A stretch of DNA of 28,488 bases from a virus. Its lineage: Duplodnaviria > Heunggongvirae > Uroviricota > Caudoviricetes. The stretch's first letter is position 1. The number at the start of each line of letters is the position of its first letter. Position numbers and translations under genes: made by a program. Location of the stretch: the IMG/VR virus record IMGVR_UViG_2609460354_000008, positions 1 to 28,488 of that record. One strand, written 5' to 3'. The notes beneath the pieces were generated by a model. It ran no database searches. It saw only the letters and a list, made by a program, of their open reading frames with translations, and was not told where the DNA came from. This document shows, piece by piece, positions 4,306 to 28,488 of the stretch.

Positions 4306-5354
4306 GAAATCGTCCCCAGAACCGCCAGTTCATTTTTTGCAATGGAGATATTGTCTGCCGGTGCAAGCAACTGATGGCTGTATTCCCCGTTCGCACCGGA
4401 AATCGCCTCACTGATACGCGACACCTTCAGTTCTCCCTGCGGATAACCATCACGCAGCAGGAACGAACGCAACTCCGCGGTGATGGCAGCCCGTATTTCC
4501 GGTGTATCCGGCGTCACGCGGATATGAAAATCCACTTTATGTGCCACCGGCCTGAACACATACAAGTCAGAGCCTGCCACCGGGGCCAGTGGCCCGATAT
4601 GTTGTCTTGCCGCCGTTTCCGTTGATTCTTCCGGAATGGGATTAATCAGGTCACTGCTGGCAATCATCACACCGACAGTTCCCGTTCCCATCCAGTGACG
4701 GTATGTCCATGCGCGGGTAATGCCGGGCACTTCTTTAGCCCAGACGACATAGTCCCCGTCAGCCCCGCCCTGCGGCGTCCAGTAATACCGCTCAATGACG
4801 CGGGCGCGCCACGTTTCCAGATCTTCAGTATCGAATCCGCCAGTCAGGGTATCTGCAACACCGGAAGACGGCAGACCATTCACCGGCGTGACCAGGATTA
4901 ATGCCGTACCGTCGTCAGCGTTACCGACCGCGCCTGTAGTTGAGCAAGTGATCGGCACACGCAGGACACCACCGGAGCTGGTTGCATCGGCAGTTGCCGT
5001 GTACTGAACCAGGTCATCGCGCTGAATCACGCTCCCGGCGGTCACCTTCAGGCCATCACTGACACCTTCCCAGCGCATATATCCGCTGGCAGCCGTGGCC
5101 CCCTTGCGCGGACACCGTTTCATCGCAGCATGTCGCGCCAGCCAGGACTCATCGCACAGGTCAGGCAGCATGTTCATTGCCAGATAATCGATGTAACCGT
5201 AAACCGTATGCAGCGCCGCCGCATACACCTTTGCCCGCACGTCTTCATCCATGCGCCGGAGCGTGTCGCTGACGTCCAGCCTGGCGAATAAATCGTTACA
5301 GAGCATACTGATATTTTCTGCCAGCGTCGGGCGCTGAAATTCACTGTCCGCCAT
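4296..5354 (-). CDS. Baseplate J-like protein (Mu gp47-like)
   Basis: 352 aa; size and position in a Mu-like baseplate block. Confidence 0.75.
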
Positions 5355-5769
5355 GCGTTATCGCACTCCACAGATCATCAAAAGAAATCATTACCGGTCC
5401 GTCACGACGCCAGAGAGTGATACTGTTACCCAGTTCATTAATCCCGGTGCGGCGGATATCCAGATCAATACGGGACACCACGCCGTCATCAATCATCCAT
5501 TGCAGGCATTCGCGGATATACCCCCTTACCGTCTGCACCAGCTGATTGGTCAGTTTGCTGCGCTGAAGCAGCCACAGTCGGGAGCCGTAACGGTCATTCT
5601 GTACCGCAGGCCAGGTATCCCCCCACCATCCCATCGGGACGTCGGCGTTGTCATCAGGCTCCGCCCGCCGCCAGGTGAACAGGGAAATCACCACGGCGCG
5701 GGTCAGCGGATCCAGCGGTGCGCTGGCGCAGGTGCGTTTACCGTTCACCGTCAGCCACAGTTCCATCAT
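5341..5769 (-). CDS. Baseplate wedge protein (Mu gp46-like)
   Basis: 142 aa; conserved position between the spike and J-like genes. Confidence 0.65.
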   Translation of the reverse strand: MMELWLTVNGKRTCASAPLDPLTRAVVISLFTWRRAEPDDNADVPMGWWGDTWPAVQNDRYGSRLWLLQRSKLTNQLVQTVRGYIRECLQWMIDDGVVSRIDLDIRRTGINELGNSITLWRRDGPVMISFDDLWSAITHGGQ

Positions 5770-7393: not shown

Positions 7394-8718
7394 TGCACTG
7401 GCACCTTCAGAGGGATCACCGGCACAAAGCCGGGATGCGTAATGGCATTACGCCGGATAATGTCCGCGTCACGCGCCGCGTTATCAAACCAGGTCGCCGC
7501 CAGCACCAGCGCGGGTAAAACCTCATCCGGTGTGCGCTGAATGATCCGTGCAGACTGTTCAAGGCGCGTGTTGATATCCGCATTCAGATCTGCTTTCACC
7601 CGGCGCAGCGCCAGAAACAGCGCATCACTGGTTGTACGGGACAACTCCTTATCAATTGCCGTATTCAGTGTGTCGCGAATGTCAGTCAGTTCTTCCCACG
7701 TCGGCAGGTCAACCGTGTTTTTCACCGCCGGTGCATTGTTCAGTGCCGGATGCGTGACGGAAGGCCAGCCAGTGCTCTGCGCGGGTGTTGTTGCCTGCCC
7801 CACTGCGGCATTCTGCATCACCGCGGAAGTTGTTGGCGCAGGCAATCGGGTGACGGCATACGCCGCTTCGCTGATTGCGGTCGTACGAAGGGTGCTGGCA
7901 ACCACGTTACGCTGCTGCGTCGCCGTGGCGGTGGTTTTACTGTCCGTTTTCCAGACGCCGCGCGGTTGCAGATCGCTGCCGAGGCTGACACCGGAAAGCG
8001 TTTTGATCATGGTGACCAGGTCGCTGGCGTTACCATAAAGGCGTTTCCCGGTACGCCACATTTTCTGCACCTGCTCAACGAAATTTTTGCCTGACGATGG
8101 TGGCGGCAGAAGTACCGAGATATCCCCCTGCAACAGCCTGGCAGCATCCGATACGGCAGAATCCACCACTTTCATCGCATCAGAAACATACCCAAGCATT
8201 GTGCTGGCATTACCGACGACGTCGTTCTGCACAAAATCCGCCACGCCATCGATACTGAAACCGCTGAAGCTGTCACTGATGCAGTCATCCAGTGCAGAAC
8301 AGGATGACATCAGCGTCTGCGCCGTCGCCGCACCTGATGTGGGGTAAGAGAGTTCTCCCGCTTCGACAAACTTCAGGTCAAAGCGGACAATACGCCCTTC
8401 ACTCTTCGATGTGCTGACCCGAACCTCTCCATCAACACAGACTTTCAGCTCACCGTAAGTCGGATGGACAAGCGTGCCGGGACCGGGTTTATTCAGCGCG
8501 TCAATCAGGCGATCGCGCTGGTCAAAGCAGTCATCTCCCACCACATAAGCCGTGATGGACGGGCGGAAAGTGATTTTCCCCAGGTCTTCAGTATAGGGTT
8601 TGTCGCGGTTCGGGTATTCGTGCGTTTCCACACGACGACCGGTTCCCGCACTTTCTTCTTCAACCTTAAACGGCACACCGCGAAATGACGCGTCCTGAAG
8701 TCTGTCTTTCCACGTCAT
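7390..8718 (-). CDS. DNA circularisation protein (Mu gp43/N-like); start set at Met15 (MTWKDRLQ)
   Basis: Conserved position after the tape measure gene; GGAG RBS about 6 nt upstream of the ATG at 8718. Confidence 0.65.
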   Translation of the reverse strand: MTWKDRLQDASFRGVPFKVEEESAGTGRRVETHEYPNRDKPYTEDLGKITFRPSITAYVVGDDCFDQRDRLIDALNKPGPGTLVHPTYGELKVCVDGEVRVSTSKSEGRIVRFDLKFVEAGELSYPTSGAATAQTLMSSCSALDDCISDSFSGFSIDGVADFVQNDVVGNASTMLGYVSDAMKVVDSAVSDAARLLQGDISVLLPPPSSGKNFVEQVQKMWRTGKRLYGNASDLVTMIKTLSGVSLGSDLQPRGVWKTDSKTTATATQQRNVVASTLRTTAISEAAYAVTRLPAPTTSAVMQNAAVGQATTPAQSTGWPSVTHPALNNAPAVKNTVDLPTWEELTDIRDTLNTAIDKELSRTTSDALFLALRRVKADLNADINTRLEQSARIIQRTPDEVLPALVLAATWFDNAARDADIIRRNAITHPGFVPVIPLKVPVQ

Positions 8719-23089: not shown

Positions 23090-23370
23090 TTCGCTTCCTT
23101 AGCAGTCCGATAAGTACTGTCTGCTCATCCAACCTAACGAATGTAGATCAGAATGACAAGTCTTTCGCGCTAATTTCAATTTGATATCTGTTCGTAAACA
23201 TGATGGCGCGAAATATTACGCATGAAGTGCTTCTACATCAACATAAAAGTTACTTTTTTTGTGTTCACAGCATGTAAAGTAAAAGCCCCGCACGATGGCG
23301 AGGCTGTTAATTCTTTGTCGACCAACAAAGCTATGGCGACGATATCAGATTTACATGAAATATAAGCGTT

Positions 23371-24060
23371 TCAGTTCGGTTTTGCAAGACTTACGTGCGA
23401 ACTTGTCGCCTTTTGTTGTGAACGTGATCGCGTTACTGAGATAAGCGCACCGCTATCGAGTCGCATAAAGCAGCTACGCATTGCCAACCAGTGAGGCAGG
23501 TATGTCTCTGTCCAGGTGGATTTCGCCACGCCAACCAGTTCCGCCAGCTTCTGGTATTCGTAGGCATCTTTCCCGACCAACCCTGCTTTGACATCCTGCG
23601 CTGCCAGCCATATCAGCTTCTTCAGGCGCTCCATGGTCTTGCCTGCCACCCTCTTCGCGCCGAGATACCCCCTGAATTCAGACCACGCCCACTGGGTGAT
23701 CGCCACCTGGTATTCAAAGCTGACGTTTTCACTGTAACTCCACAGCAACCACGCTTTCTGATGTTCTTCGAGAGACAGAACCGCGCGGCGCCATGAAGAT
23801 GTTGAGAACTCAACCTGGCTGACCAGTGCAATGGATGAACCTTTTGCGTACGACTGCTTACCGGAAATCGGCGGATTATCCAGCGTAATCATCTTGCCCG
23901 TTACCTCATCCAGAATGCGCGGCTTCTTTCGTTTATATGTACCAGTATCAAATTGTGCATGCTCCAGCCAGGCTTCAAGCTGGCCTTTCGTTGCTCCGCT
24001 CAAATCAGCAGTAGCCACAATGAGTTGCTCGCGGACATACTGTAAATATTGGGTATTCAT
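23371..24060 (-). CDS. Putative late-gene antiterminator Q (long Q-type); assignment by position
   Basis: 229 aa; translationally coupled to ylcG (ATGA overlap), downstream of rusA and upstream of the lysis cassette. Confidence 0.45.
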   Translation of the reverse strand: MNTQYLQYVREQLIVATADLSGATKGQLEAWLEHAQFDTGTYKRKKPRILDEVTGKMITLDNPPISGKQSYAKGSSIALVSQVEFSTSSWRRAVLSLEEHQKAWLLWSYSENVSFEYQVAITQWAWSEFRGYLGAKRVAGKTMERLKKLIWLAAQDVKAGLVGKDAYEYQKLAELVGVAKSTWTETYLPHWLAMRSCFMRLDSGALISVTRSRSQQKATSSHVSLAKPN

Positions 24061-24843: not shown

Positions 24844-25006
24844 GATTCCTCCTTGCTGCCAGTCGCAACCATTTTTTATCAACCAGGCTAGCGGTATATC
24901 CGAGCAGTGTTGGTATTTCGGATGGCTTCAGCTCAGGCTTACGCTTACGACGATTTGGTACTCTGTAGATGTGTCCGTTCATGACACGAATAAGCGGTGT
25001 AGCCAT
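24836..25006 (-). CDS. ninE: NinE-like protein (56 aa), not in the ORF track
   Basis: [56 protein letters not shown]; ATG overlaps the NinB stop (TAATG) and stop overlaps the ybcO start. Confidence 0.6.
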   Translation of the reverse strand: MATPLIRVMNGHIYRVPNRRKRKPELKPSEIPTLLGYTASLVDKKWLRLAARRNHG

Positions 25007-25461
25007 TACGCCTCCTGCTTGTCGCGCAGCAGCTGGAACTCGCAGCTCTGCGGAATAGTCAGGTGGCAGCCAATATTCATCGCCCAGGCTTCAACCTTAC
25101 ACAGGAAGACATACATCTCTCCGGTATCAAGATCGGAAGTATGGCGTAACGACTGGATAGTAGTGATTTCGCCGGTTACGACATCAACCAGGTCCTTGGT
25201 TTCATAACCGAGGTATGTGTGTTTGAGAGCATCTTTTACCCATGCTGCGGTAGCGAACGATTTCCCCCTGCTGACGAGGTATTCACTGATTTCGCTGTAC
25301 CACATGTGGCTGAGTGCATTCTGGGAAAGACTGCGTTTCTCACGCCACGGTTTAAGCACCATGCGAAAGCATTTTCCGTCCTCCAGATAAGGCTGGATCT
25401 GCTGGCCGATAGCGATGAAGTTGCCGCGATGCAATTTGATACCATCTTGTGGGAGGTTCAC
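25006..25461 (-). CDS. ninB: NinB-family recombination protein (YbcN-like); GTG start with GGAGG RBS
   Basis: 151 aa; matches the DLP12 YbcN/NinB sequence as recalled; first gene of the nin cluster. Confidence 0.8.
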
Positions 25462-25682
25462 GCTTCACCTCCGCAGAGGTCAAACGCTGGATGCAAAGAA
25501 TCGCAGGTACATTTCTGCATCTGTGAAGGGAGAAGAGAGTTTGGATTGTGTGTGCGCATAAACGTCCCCGTTTAGCGCAGAAGTCACCGGAGGTGTTCAA
25601 ACTCCAGTGACTTAATTATGACAAGTTGATTATTGAAAATCAAAAGTCATTTAAACAATAATGATACCCAGCAAGAGATTTC

Positions 25683-26084
25683 TTATTTTAACTCATAGAT
25701 CAGACAGTCAACGATTTCTAAACCATTTACCATAGAATTAGAAACCCGAACTTTACCATCGTTGACTCTAGCAAATCCTTTTAACATTTTATAAACAAAA
25801 GCTGAATCCCCCTTAGCCTCAATTGCTTCTAATGGTATCGGCTTATACTTTTTTGATATGCTATTTCTATTTATCTCACTGATTTTTCTATATATTTCTG
25901 CCGGTCCACGTTCTGAGAAGTCACTGATAACTAAAATATATCTCCAAGATAGATCTGGGTAATAAAACCACATTGCAGCATCAATAGTTAAATTCTGTAA
26001 CTTGAGTTTTTTTAACAAAAATTGACCTGAGAATTCCATATCTTTTGTCAACTCTCTGCCGATTACCAGTGTGCTTTTACCCAT
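25683..26084 (-). CDS. Unknown 133-aa protein, downstream partner of the HEPN gene (overlaps it by 22 nt); no recognisable nucleotidyltransferase motif
   Basis: GGAG RBS about 8 nt upstream of the ATG, inside the HEPN gene 3' end; low-GC island. Confidence 0.55.
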   Translation of the reverse strand: MGKSTLVIGRELTKDMEFSGQFLLKKLKLQNLTIDAAMWFYYPDLSWRYILVISDFSERGPAEIYRKISEINRNSISKKYKPIPLEAIEAKGDSAFVYKMLKGFARVNDGKVRVSNSMVNGLEIVDCLIYELK

Positions 26085-26479
26085 TTCAAAACTCCAGAAT
26101 TTTGGTCACCTACAGCATCAAACAATTGTTCGGCCATAGCTTTACTTATGTTATTGTCGTATCTAAATTGCTCGCTCCAGTCTTTAACGACCGACCAGTT
26201 AATCTCCAACGAAACATCATTTTTTGCGTCAGCAATCAAAATTTGATGTAAGTTGGCAATTTTGAGAAGTTGCGACAAATCATGAGTATATGAATCATTT
26301 ACGACTTTTTTGTTTGGAAACTCATGTTGTAAAAATGACTTGGCAATACAGGCCTTCAATGCACATTCAACTGCATACCCACAAAGATAATATGCACCAT
26401 GAAAAAAGCCATGATCAAGCAAGCATTTGGCCTCATTAAGCCTAGTGTCAGATAATGCTTCAAGGTCGTTTTTATTCAT
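26063..26479 (-). CDS. HEPN-domain protein (138 aa), first gene of a two-gene AT-rich module
   Basis: HEPN hallmarks read by eye: helix GFFHGAYYLCGYAVECALKACIAK, THDLSQLL, and C-terminal EQFRYDN; canonical Rx4-6H not evident. Confidence 0.55.
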   Translation of the reverse strand: MNKNDLEALSDTRLNEAKCLLDHGFFHGAYYLCGYAVECALKACIAKSFLQHEFPNKKVVNDSYTHDLSQLLKIANLHQILIADAKNDVSLEINWSVVKDWSEQFRYDNNISKAMAEQLFDAVGDQNSGVLKWVKAHW

Positions 26480-26778
26480 ACAATTATAACTTGAATTATG
26501 CTAATTTTTATGATCATACCCTTATCAGGTATGATGTAGGAACTGAAAACAATATTGGATATCATTTTCGGTATTTCTCTGCAAATTCCAGCCCACCGGA
26601 TCTCGGTGTACAATCTGTCGCTGTTCGCGCAAATTTAGGGTCAATCACTTCATTTTTTGCATCAAACCCTCACTAACATCGAGCGATTATTGTGCAAGTA
26701 GTGTTCTTGACTTCTCATTAAACCGTCAGCATTCAATTAATTACAAAATACTAGCGGCATTTCTCTCCCGCAACTTTA

Positions 26779-27444
26779 TTACAGCCGTTCAGAACGTAAA
26801 TGCGTCAATACTCGACTCCACTTATCATCCTGCCACGGCCGGAATTTTACATGTGCCGTTTCTCTGGCAAGGATTTCGCGCGCCTTATGTAGTATCTGGG
26901 GATATTCTTGCTCGATGGAAGCAAAGCGACCGGCTTCGCGGTGCTCCGCAACCTGAAGAAGTAGAGTAACATTCTGGCAGGCGGTTAACATCACATCCCC
27001 TGCTCGCCATAACCAAGCAAGTGTGCAAAGTTCGTTATCAGTGAATTGTTTTATGATTGGGGATTGTTGAACTTCTCGATCGAGAATATCCAGAACCCAA
27101 CGGCGGAACTCTTTGGCTACAGGAGTGCGGGCGAACATGGCGATCAAATGGGCTCCGCGGAGAGAGAAAACGCGTACTTTCTTCTTCAAGTTTCGAGTAC
27201 TTTTCGAGGTACTCAGATCAAGTACCTCGACATCATTCTCTGAGGTACTGACTTCAAGCACTCTAGTCATACTACTGGAAAATTCGTCAGCATATTTGTT
27301 GTAAATCATCGTGACTGCGCGACTATTCGAATACTTCAGTGCTCTTGCTAGGTTGGATGAAGTTAGCCATATTCCGGCAATATTTGCCACTGGCACTAGT
27401 GCTTCACCTTGGAAGTTCAGATCTGATGTTGCTACAATACTCAT
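26779..27444 (-). CDS. Bro-N domain antirepressor-like protein (start set at Met28, AAGGAA RBS; alternative start at 27525)
   Basis: N-terminal Bro-N-like pattern (LNFQGEALVPVANIAGIW...FSLRGAHLIAMFARTPVAKEFRRWVLDILDREV); downstream of the Arc-like gene. Confidence 0.55.
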   Translation of the reverse strand: MSIVATSDLNFQGEALVPVANIAGIWLTSSNLARALKYSNSRAVTMIYNKYADEFSSSMTRVLEVSTSENDVEVLDLSTSKSTRNLKKKVRVFSLRGAHLIAMFARTPVAKEFRRWVLDILDREVQQSPIIKQFTDNELCTLAWLWRAGDVMLTACQNVTLLLQVAEHREAGRFASIEQEYPQILHKAREILARETAHVKFRPWQDDKWSRVLTHLRSERL

Positions 27445-27514
27445 GTCGATATTTCCTTCGCGGTTATTTTCGATAGAAGCCCCTAAGGTTGCCGCCAGTG
27501 GGGCTTCGCTGTTT

Positions 27515-27673
27515 CTAGCGAGCATGTATCCGTGCTCTAAATTTCAATGCCCATACAAGCGCCTGAACAATAGCTGCGTTCTCAGACATCCCTTCCTCCT
27601 GAGCAATTCGCTTGAATTCATCCTTCACTTTTTGCGGATAGCGAAGGGTAATTTTTACCTCTTTCTTTTCCAT
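27515..27673 (-). CDS. Arc-like ribbon-helix-helix repressor (52 aa)
   Basis: MEKKEVKITLRYPQKVKDEFKRIAQEEGMSENAAIVQALVWAL has the RHH beta-strand/helix pattern; GAGG RBS; divergent from the Mnt-like gene. Confidence 0.55.
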   Translation of the reverse strand: MEKKEVKITLRYPQKVKDEFKRIAQEEGMSENAAIVQALVWALKFRARIHAR

Positions 27674-27772
27674 TGACATAACCTCATGAGGCCACAATGA
27701 CACCATGAGGCCATAATGCCACCATTGAATTGATGTGGCAATATGGCACCATTCATTTTTTTGGGGGTTCCA

Positions 27773-28090
27773 ATGGCTGACAAACAAGTAAAAGACTACG
27801 ATAAGTTTAACCTCCGTTTCCCTGATGGGATGCGTGAAGCTATAGCTGAACGAGCCAAACGAAACGGGCGCTCAATGAATTCAGAAATCATTCAAATACT
27901 CCAAGATGCCATAGAAGGAAGTTCTGAACTATCTAAACGTTTAAATTTAGTTGGGTTTATTCGAGGTGACAGAGAGATACGTGACCTGGAAGATAATGCA
28001 AGCAAACTTGCGTTGTATATCGATCATAGAACACAAGAGTTTAAACAAATTTTATTGGAAGATTTAAAATTACTCCTTAATCATGATTAA
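27773..28090 (+). CDS. Mnt/Arc-family ribbon-helix-helix repressor (Mnt-like, 105 aa)
   Basis: FNLRFPDGMREAIAERAKRNGRSMNSEIIQILQDAI aligns with P22 Mnt (FNFRMP...ANGRSMNSELLQIVQDAL) and Arc; GGGGG RBS before the ATG. Confidence 0.7.
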   Translation: MADKQVKDYDKFNLRFPDGMREAIAERAKRNGRSMNSEIIQILQDAIEGSSELSKRLNLVGFIRGDREIRDLEDNASKLALYIDHRTQEFKQILLEDLKLLLNHD

Positions 28091-28134
28091 TGTTAATATT
28101 TTCTCAAAATCCAATTGATAGAGGAGTTATTTAT

Positions 28135-28488
28135 ATGCGTATTAAAATCATGCCTCTCCCAAGTACTATCCAAATGGGCCAAAAAAAACGGACAACAAGT
28201 GCAGCAGTATCCACAACGTTTTTTGGCCCAAATGGTCTTAAACCACAAGGAGATAGCCTTGAAAATACAGCAAAGAAAAACTCTTCAATTTTGCGAGAAA
28301 AAAACTACAGAAAAATTGCTGAAACACTATATAAAACTGGGGTCATAACTATGGCAACATTTGATAGAGAATGTAATTTAGGAGGTAAAGACAGAAAGTA
28401 CTTGCGACATATTTTTTCCCTACTTTTGTCAGAAAAAATCAAATCAAAACAAATCAGAATAACCCGCAAGAAAAAACAGAAGAAATAA
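28135..28488 (+). CDS. Hypothetical protein with Lys-rich basic C-terminus (117 aa), low-GC; stop is the last codon of the window
   Basis: ATG preceded by a GAGGAG RBS about 8 nt upstream; no family recognised. Confidence 0.4.
   Translation: MRIKIMPLPSTIQMGQKKRTTSAAVSTTFFGPNGLKPQGDSLENTAKKNSSILREKNYRKIAETLYKTGVITMATFDRECNLGGKDRKYLRHIFSLLLSEKIKSKQIRITRKKKQKK

Follow-up and report, generated by a model that had tools for sequence, protein, structure and literature searches.

The two overlapping minus-strand genes at positions 25683-26479 of the window (the whole stretch of 28,488 nucleotides of viral DNA that was analysed) on balance appear to form a mobile two-gene toxin-antitoxin (TA) or abortive-infection module, carried as cargo in an accessory slot of a lambdoid prophage, in which a HEPN effector would be restrained by a non-enzymatic partner. 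This reading is drawn from the strict pairing, the tight coupling, the small size of both proteins, the scattered occurrence across phyla at high identity, the variable sites and the carriage on prophages and a small plasmid. The two genes are a real pair and not chance open reading frames, as is evident from the identity of both products to RefSeq proteins, the 190 intact copies in E. coli and the pairs found across phyla. Far from being a local oddity, the module is widespread: the partner family comprises about 3,100 clusters, and relatives of the HEPN protein are encoded in 413 of 100,044 species genomes. Judged from the sequences, the system looks like a HEPN-based two-gene module whose partner is novel or at least highly degenerate. 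The features of the island are as follows:

26063-26479, minus strand: gene of the HEPN-domain protein, 138 aa; PF05168 'HEPN-T' class; predicted toxin/effector
25683-26084, minus strand: partner gene, 133 aa; large unnamed alpha/beta family; predicted antitoxin/regulator
26063-26084, minus strand: gene overlap of 22 nt between the HEPN 3' end and the partner 5' end
26095-26092, minus strand: GGAG Shine-Dalgarno sequence for the partner, 7 nt before the partner ATG
26480-26778, minus strand: AT-rich upstream intergenic region, 299 nt, GC 0.37; putative own promoter
25646-25682, minus strand: short AT-rich tail of the island, ending where lambdoid phage homology resumes at about 25645

Location and composition of the island

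The preliminary description of this DNA had proposed two overlapping minus-strand genes sharing 22 nt, and the open reading frames 26063-26479 and 25683-26084 were both recovered. The island is set in a lambdoid prophage between a NinB-like gene and an antirepressor gene. Pfam searches placed Q (23371-24060), RusA, YbcO, NinE and the NinB-like gene (25006-25461) on its downstream flank and a Bro-N/P22AR_C antirepressor gene (26779-27525) with two Arc-like genes on its upstream flank, in accordance with the earlier framing of the pair between a nin cluster and immI-like genes. The pair has the orientation of the nin genes and Q and falls within the delayed-early region.

The AT-rich block of 1,133 nt (about 25646-26778) has a GC content of 0.355 against 0.518 for the whole window and is the window's minimum among 1.1-kb stretches (mean 0.523, sd 0.054). 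The AT-rich block described earlier is thus real, whereas the backbone that had been called GC-rich has a GC content of about 0.51, which is ordinary for E. coli. Megablast to phages gave coverage near the island only for window positions 25500-25647, and the lambdoid homology ends at about 25647. The label of moron that had been given to the block fits by half: the composition (0.355 against 0.518) and the break in homology reveal a distinct insertion between conserved backbone genes, but the consensus scan showed neither a promoter on the minus strand in the region 26480-26778 upstream of the HEPN gene nor a terminator-like site directly past the partner stop codon.

The last 45 nt or so of the upstream region are common to the Klebsiella prophage copy and carry -10-like hexamers, in DNA that is AT-rich. 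One of these is TATGAT at 26518-26513 (minus strand), about 35 nt before the HEPN ATG, which reads TATAAT in the O26:H11 copy (10013-10018 of locus L001); a second hexamer is also variable, being CATAAT in the window copy and GATAAT in the O26:H11 copy. Given these differences, expression of the pair may differ between variants. The repeat search gave no informative repeats flanking the island and the Rfam search gave no match inside it.

Other features of the window were also recorded. An Rfam match to isrJ, an Hfq-binding sRNA, was found at 23282-23355 (minus strand) just downstream of the Q antiterminator gene, with 64.9 bits against a gathering score of 37. The Arc-like ribbon-helix-helix genes at 27515-27787 (minus strand) and 27743-28090 (plus strand) stand head to head with 5' ends overlapping by 45 nt, and adjoin the antirepressor gene at 26779-27525 in an immI-like control region. 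Beyond them lies an AT-rich open reading frame at 28090-28488 (plus strand; GC 0.33, 132 aa, no Pfam match), which stops at the last base of the window and may be another cargo gene. Positions 1-25000 match prophages in which tail genes of the myovirus type (tail sheath, DNA circularization protein) are combined with a lambdoid early region. In O26:H11 the cassette is found in a prophage whose annotated late-region genes are different (lambda-type lysis genes, ompC, iss). Since the window and O26:H11 copies are in prophages with different late regions, the cassette travels between mosaic phages.

The HEPN protein

The product of 26063-26479 is identical to RefSeq WP_001038620.1, annotated as 'HEPN domain-containing protein'. 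Residues 12-118 matched the Pfam HEPN model PF05168 with 27.8 bits against a gathering cutoff of 22 (E 3e-6), and most homologs of the protein carry the same precomputed annotation. The AlphaFold2 model built on 40 homologs was confident (pLDDT 93.4) and gave an all-alpha helical bundle superposable on solved HEPN domains; profile and structure agree in this respect with the fold first proposed. The nearest entries in the structure comparison were TT1696, AF0298 and ST0689, with the HepT toxins scoring lower (8.0 and 7.6) and LsoA (6.2) and HepS (5.9) distant. The sequence-profile search of the PDB with the HEPN family returned nothing meaningful.

The alignment of 115 homologs revealed about 18 residues at 99-100% conservation, a His/Arg/Glu/Lys set among them: R13, Y30, Y31, L32, G34, Y35, E38, C39, K42, F54, P55, H66 (100% conserved), W95, W101, R106 and Y107 belong to this group. 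The AVECALKA, THDL and RY motifs picked out earlier are present and map to the family-invariant E38, K42, H66, R106 and Y107. The observation that a clear Rx4-6H motif is lacking also stood, as no histidine lies 4-6 residues past the invariant R106 in the window protein or consistently across its family. The RX4HXY motif is likewise absent, although the invariant Y107 follows R106 directly.

In HEPN-T proteins (PF05168) the motif histidine is often missing, with 'a conserved H elsewhere', and some of these domains may bind without being catalytic (Anantharaman et al., PMC3710099). The RNase activity of a Legionella HEPN toxin needs helix-2 residues and Mg2+ and not RX4H (PMC11586414). Because that toxin works without the motif, its absence here would, by analogy, neither prove nor rule out catalysis by this HEPN protein.

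The partner protein

The product of 25683-26084 is identical to RefSeq WP_000520500.1, a 'hypothetical protein'. Pfam, NCBIfam and PADLOC gave no match for the window partner or for 58 family members, PHROGs matched it solely as a family of unknown function, and a sequence-profile search of the PDB with the family found nothing meaningful; the partner had been called unrecognised, and no sequence library tried supplied a named family. No Pfam model exists for the partner family, and the literature searched contained no match to it.

The first word-based search found only 32 close relatives. Overlapping genes downstream of distant HEPN homologs encode products of about 130 aa with 27-28% identity to the partner, and the profile search with the partner family gave 577 clusters at 90% identity. 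Among 1.84 billion cluster representatives scanned with HMMER, 3,095 matched at E <= 1e-3, of which 1,634 were at E <= 1e-10. A 178-aa protein of the 'eukprot' set (P0015), 99% identical to the partner over 77% of its length, is probably a bacterial contamination of that eukaryotic protein set.

The AlphaFold2 model of the partner was confident (pLDDT 91.9) and showed an alpha/beta protein with the order a1-b1-b2-a2-b3-a3-b4-b5. The Foldseek comparison with the PDB gave no significant match (best E 0.086, TM at most 0.39); the best structural matches are nucleotidyltransferases of the MNT type, but they are weak. Conserved positions of the family are G20, W39, W47, the invariant G60 followed by P or S, Y65, R113, D126 and Y130. 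Few of these are polar (R113, D126, Y65, Y130) and no enzyme motif is recognisable. An acidic pair of the nucleotidyltransferase type is not conserved in the family, and the DxD/third-carboxylate triad is missing, which upholds the earlier remark that the partner is without the MNT signature. The hhalign comparison with kanamycin nucleotidyltransferase, for which an approximate sequence was used, gave no signal. Canonical nucleotidyl transfer by the partner is judged very unlikely because the acidic pair is not conserved, while an MNT origin of the protein is plausible but unproven. The DNA-binding domain of the kind found in most type II antitoxins is lacking as well.

Overlap and probable translational coupling

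The partner ATG (26084-26082) is the first codon of the 22-nt overlap and is composed of the last base of the HEPN Lys132 codon and the TG of the conserved Trp133 codon. The linkage, overlap, Shine-Dalgarno and neighbour counts were taken from 80 loci kept from a scan of species genomes. The identical 22-nt overlap was found in 72 of these 80 loci in many phyla, all 72 with a start codon (ATG, GTG or TTG) at the same position, made up of the third base of a HEPN codon and the TG of the Trp133 codon, and an SD-like GGAG or GGGG upstream; a 7-nt overlap (ATGGTAA) occurs in four more. The GGAG before the partner is built from the invariant HEPN Gly129 codon. The ribosome-binding site had been placed inside the HEPN gene, which is correct, and within its last 22 nt, which is not, as the GGAG lies at 26095-26092 and the overlap at 26063-26084.

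A Shine-Dalgarno match of at least 4 nt precedes 59% of the partner starts against 18% of the HEPN starts in the 80 loci, and the HEPN ATG of the window has none before it. This difference suggests that translation is coupled and that the partner would be made at least as abundantly as the HEPN protein.

Occurrence and evolution of the pair

The 797-nt cassette was found in 190 of 5,426 complete E. coli genomes (3.5%) as a single chromosomal copy each. All 190 copies are full length, at least 99% identical and have both genes intact; the carriers include O157:H7, O26:H11 and O111 strains. Klebsiella lambdoid prophages with different backbones hold a diverged pair (partner identity 60-79%) in the same slot, which there lies between the replication genes and the nin/Q genes. 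The Acinetobacter prophages have the pair past the lysis genes, adjoining the integrase, so that two different prophage positions are seen across E. coli, Klebsiella and Acinetobacter. The pair was present in one of 50,697 sequenced phages (Klebsiella phage Kp4864-1) and two of 72,556 plasmids, the copy on a small Acinetobacter plasmid adjoining a BrnT/BrnA pair.

The species scan, in which one genome per species was searched with the HEPN alignment as query, found the 413 species with HEPN relatives in many phyla at about 50% HEPN identity. At least a dozen phyla are represented among the 80 loci (Proteobacteria, Chloroflexi, Bacteroidota, Chlorobi, Acidobacteria, Nitrospirae, Planctomycetes, Cyanobacteria, Verrucomicrobia and others), and archaea account for three of the loci (one from an Aenigmatarchaeota genome, one from ANME-2 and one from Methanosarcinales). 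Each of the 80 loci has a partner homolog immediately downstream of the HEPN gene on the same strand. TA modules are generally expected to consist of two small neighbouring genes of one orientation that are never found apart, and this was seen in 80/80 loci and 190/190 E. coli copies; the patchy, horizontally mobile occurrence in variable neighbourhoods that is also expected of them was seen in prophages, on a plasmid and at chromosomal sites.

The neighbours do not include a conserved third gene: the 145 open reading frames closest to the pair in the 80 loci matched 220 different Pfam families. Housekeeping genes are among them (SecDF, DHDPS, RF-1, EF-P, AIR synthase), as are a few PIN, AAA_15 and Schlafen-AlbA genes, and the 25 commonest families include no phage family. 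The neighbourhoods outside the enterobacteria consist mostly of housekeeping genes and are not defence islands. The Woeseiaceae locus is a TA-rich island with PIN, HicB and Fic genes.

The mean pairwise identity is 0.50 for the HEPN protein against 0.35 for the partner, with the HEPN value higher in 98.6% of pairs, and the divergence of the two is correlated (r = 0.75). The better conservation of the HEPN protein is the usual pattern of toxin over antitoxin. The pI values of the two families show no toxin/antitoxin charge pattern, a comparison that is uninformative. The data taken together indicate an ancient, self-contained and horizontally mobile two-gene unit.

A DUF6236 gene (4580-5494 of locus L098) lies directly upstream of the pair on the A. 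johnsonii plasmid pAJ4131, and DUF6236 was also seen in two of the 145 neighbours of other loci; it was rejected as a conserved third component, having no tblastn match in any other locus. The Nitrospirales locus L055 has a second HEPN copy (8027-8383) about 4 kb downstream of the first, and the Desulfobacterales locus L023 has a second, partial partner open reading frame (4846-5103) right behind the first. These two cases are read as local duplications of module parts.

Proposed function and alternative explanations

In the proposed model, where toxicity, RNase activity, neutralisation by binding and the trigger are predicted properties, the HEPN protein would be the effector, probably a dimeric RNase acting through E38/K42 of helix 2, H66 and R106/Y107 in place of Rx4-6H. 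The partner would be made by translational coupling, its start codon and Shine-Dalgarno sequence being written into the C-terminal codons of the HEPN gene, and would hold the HEPN protein inactive by binding and not by nucleotidylation, since it lacks the nucleotidyltransferase catalytic residues. Among the conceivable mechanisms for the partner, neutralisation by binding appears the most economical. The partner may have arisen by degeneration from the MNT antitoxins with which HEPN proteins of this class are normally paired. Its loss, titration or triggering, for example by phage infection or element loss, would free the HEPN protein, which would then cleave RNA and arrest the cell; the benefit to the prophage would be exclusion of competitors, or addiction.

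The TA or abortive-infection reading put forward in the preliminary description gains from the strict linkage and the patchy, mobile distribution, whereas the scan found no promoter or terminator for it. The absence of Rx4-6H, the rarity on plasmids (2/72,556) and sequenced phages (1/50,697), the lack of a DNA-binding domain in the partner and of a pI charge pattern, and the mostly housekeeping neighbours likewise count against a module of this kind. The bolder form of the model is possible but doubtful: the partner would be a catalytically dead MNT descendant that went from AMPylation to binding-only neutralising or sensing, with inverted gene order and a 22-nt lock retained from E. coli prophages to archaea, and the pair would represent a new widespread HEPN TA/Abi family (about 3,100 clusters) protecting lysogens of STEC (Shiga-toxin-producing E. 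coli) from other phages.

The non-toxic alternative, in which a HEPN-T subunit binding a nucleotide or substrate and a degenerate nucleotidyltransferase-like partner form a two-subunit sensor or regulator, as in kanamycin nucleotidyltransferase and HI0073/HI0074, is considered unlikely. The partner is without the carboxylates needed for nucleotidyl transfer, and the conserved His/Arg/Glu/Lys set among the 18 or so near-invariant HEPN residues suits catalysis. The patchy cross-phylum distribution on prophages and plasmids is moreover typical of selfish or defence cassettes and not of metabolic functions.

An exchange of roles, with the downstream alpha/beta partner as effector or toxin and the upstream HEPN protein as antitoxin or regulator following the antitoxin-first type II order, has a still lower probability. 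Toxin-first operons are known in other TA families, which counts against it, and so do the very few conserved polar residues of the partner, its lack of a recognisable enzyme motif and its faster evolution. In favour of the exchange, the HEPN gene comes first while the antitoxin gene is usually the 5' one (PMC3710099), the HEPN protein lacks Rx4-6H, and the original prediction of Makarova et al. (2009) cast MNT as the toxin with HEPN as its antitoxin (PMC2701414). However, HEPN is the toxin in the HEPN-containing TA systems reviewed (PMC7641770, PMC8266594, PMC11586414), and by analogy the HEPN protein, as the better-conserved member from a family that supplies the toxin in those characterised systems, would be the effector here.

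It is quite improbable that the two are phage-serving early genes (e.g. for anti-defence or host takeover) expressed with the nin region in lytic growth. The orientation shared with the nin genes and Q inside the delayed-early region and the failure of the scan to find an own promoter would suit such a role, but the 25 commonest families among the 145 genes flanking the 80 loci include no phage family, housekeeping genes are among the flanking families and no third gene is conserved, and the Acinetobacter position past the lysis genes by the integrase is a typical lysogenic-conversion site. A programmed frameshift in the 22-nt overlap giving a HEPN-partner fusion can be set aside almost entirely: the overlap is unusually conserved and two metagenomic 'fusion' proteins exist (P0169 and P0235), but these come from contigs of about 1 kb, are without the HEPN C-terminus and look like assembly frameshifts, 72 of 80 loci have the start codon at the exact same place, preceded by an SD-like GGAG/GGGG, and the window sequence has no X_XXY_YYZ slippery heptamer.

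With the toxin-antitoxin or abortive-infection module as the preferred reading, the pair is a good and cheap experimental target, although no surprise in kind. HEPN RNases are recurrent effectors of TA, CRISPR and abortive infection, and the point of interest is how they are restrained and triggered. In this pair the companion of a classical MNT-associated HEPN belongs to a large family without a Pfam model, and the pairing is invariant from enterobacterial prophages to archaea. If the HEPN protein is toxic and the partner neutralises it, the partner would be a new antitoxin or sensor family and possibly a case of an enzyme antitoxin decayed into a binding-only one. The pair could influence phage susceptibility or prophage stability in the E. 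coli pathogens that carry it, as 3.5% of complete E. coli genomes have the cassette, O157:H7, O26:H11 and O111 strains among them.

Comparison with known systems

The closest comparison is with the HepT/MntA type VII systems (COG2250 HEPN with COG1708 MNT). The resemblance lies in the small HEPN protein of the MNT-associated PF05168 class, in the mobile two-gene design with proteins of about 130-140 aa, and in the weak best structural matches of the partner, which are MNTs. In contrast, no sequence relation of the partner to nucleotidyltransferases was detectable, and the hG[GS], [DE]h[DE]h and third carboxylate of MntA-type proteins were not found in it. Owing to the lack of this relation and of the DxD/third-carboxylate triad, AMPylation of the HEPN protein by the partner appears unlikely. 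The RX4HXY motif with its acceptor tyrosine, present in HepT/MntA, is absent here. The MNT gene is almost always the 5' one (PMC3710099), whereas here the HEPN gene comes first, both in the window and in all 80 related loci, as the reversed order recorded in the preliminary description implied. Membership of the type VII family was rejected on these grounds, namely the failed nucleotidyltransferase comparison, the inverted gene order and the absent RX4HXY.

The PADLOC model PDC-M28A was matched weakly by 40 of 40 HEPN family members (best E 7.5e-12; window HEPN protein E 1.8e-7, 29.7 bits), and none of 58 partner homologs matched any PDC-M28 model. PDC-M28 is a three-gene cassette and itself a candidate defence system, while the window module has two genes; with the weak A-model match, the unmatched partner and the different gene count, identity with it was rejected. 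The literature search gave no paper mentioning WP_001038620.1 or WP_000520500.1, none on PDC-M28 and none on an inactive nucleotidyltransferase paired with HEPN; the PADLOC-DB used was of 2023 and an earlier description is possible.

HepS is a proven HEPN abortive-infection gene in the replication/antirepressor accessory region of Gifsy-1 (PMC13043305). HepS of Gifsy-1 and Tha of S. aureus prophages resemble the present case in being HEPN proteins carried as temperate-phage accessory cargo (PMC13043305; PMC11087260), and HepS occupies an equivalent lambdoid accessory slot but is an unrelated solo HEPN. Identity with HepS, Tha or RnlAB was ruled out by sequence or structure.

In the rnlAB operon the rnlA toxin gene precedes rnlB. 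RnlB, a small alpha/beta protein that is fully folded, binds the dimer of the HEPN toxin RnlA and thereby inhibits it, and the rnlAB system has anti-phage activity (PMC8266594). The window pair resembles RnlA-RnlB and LsoA-LsoB in joining a HEPN protein with a folded small alpha/beta partner, and inhibition by binding is the mode of action predicted for it.
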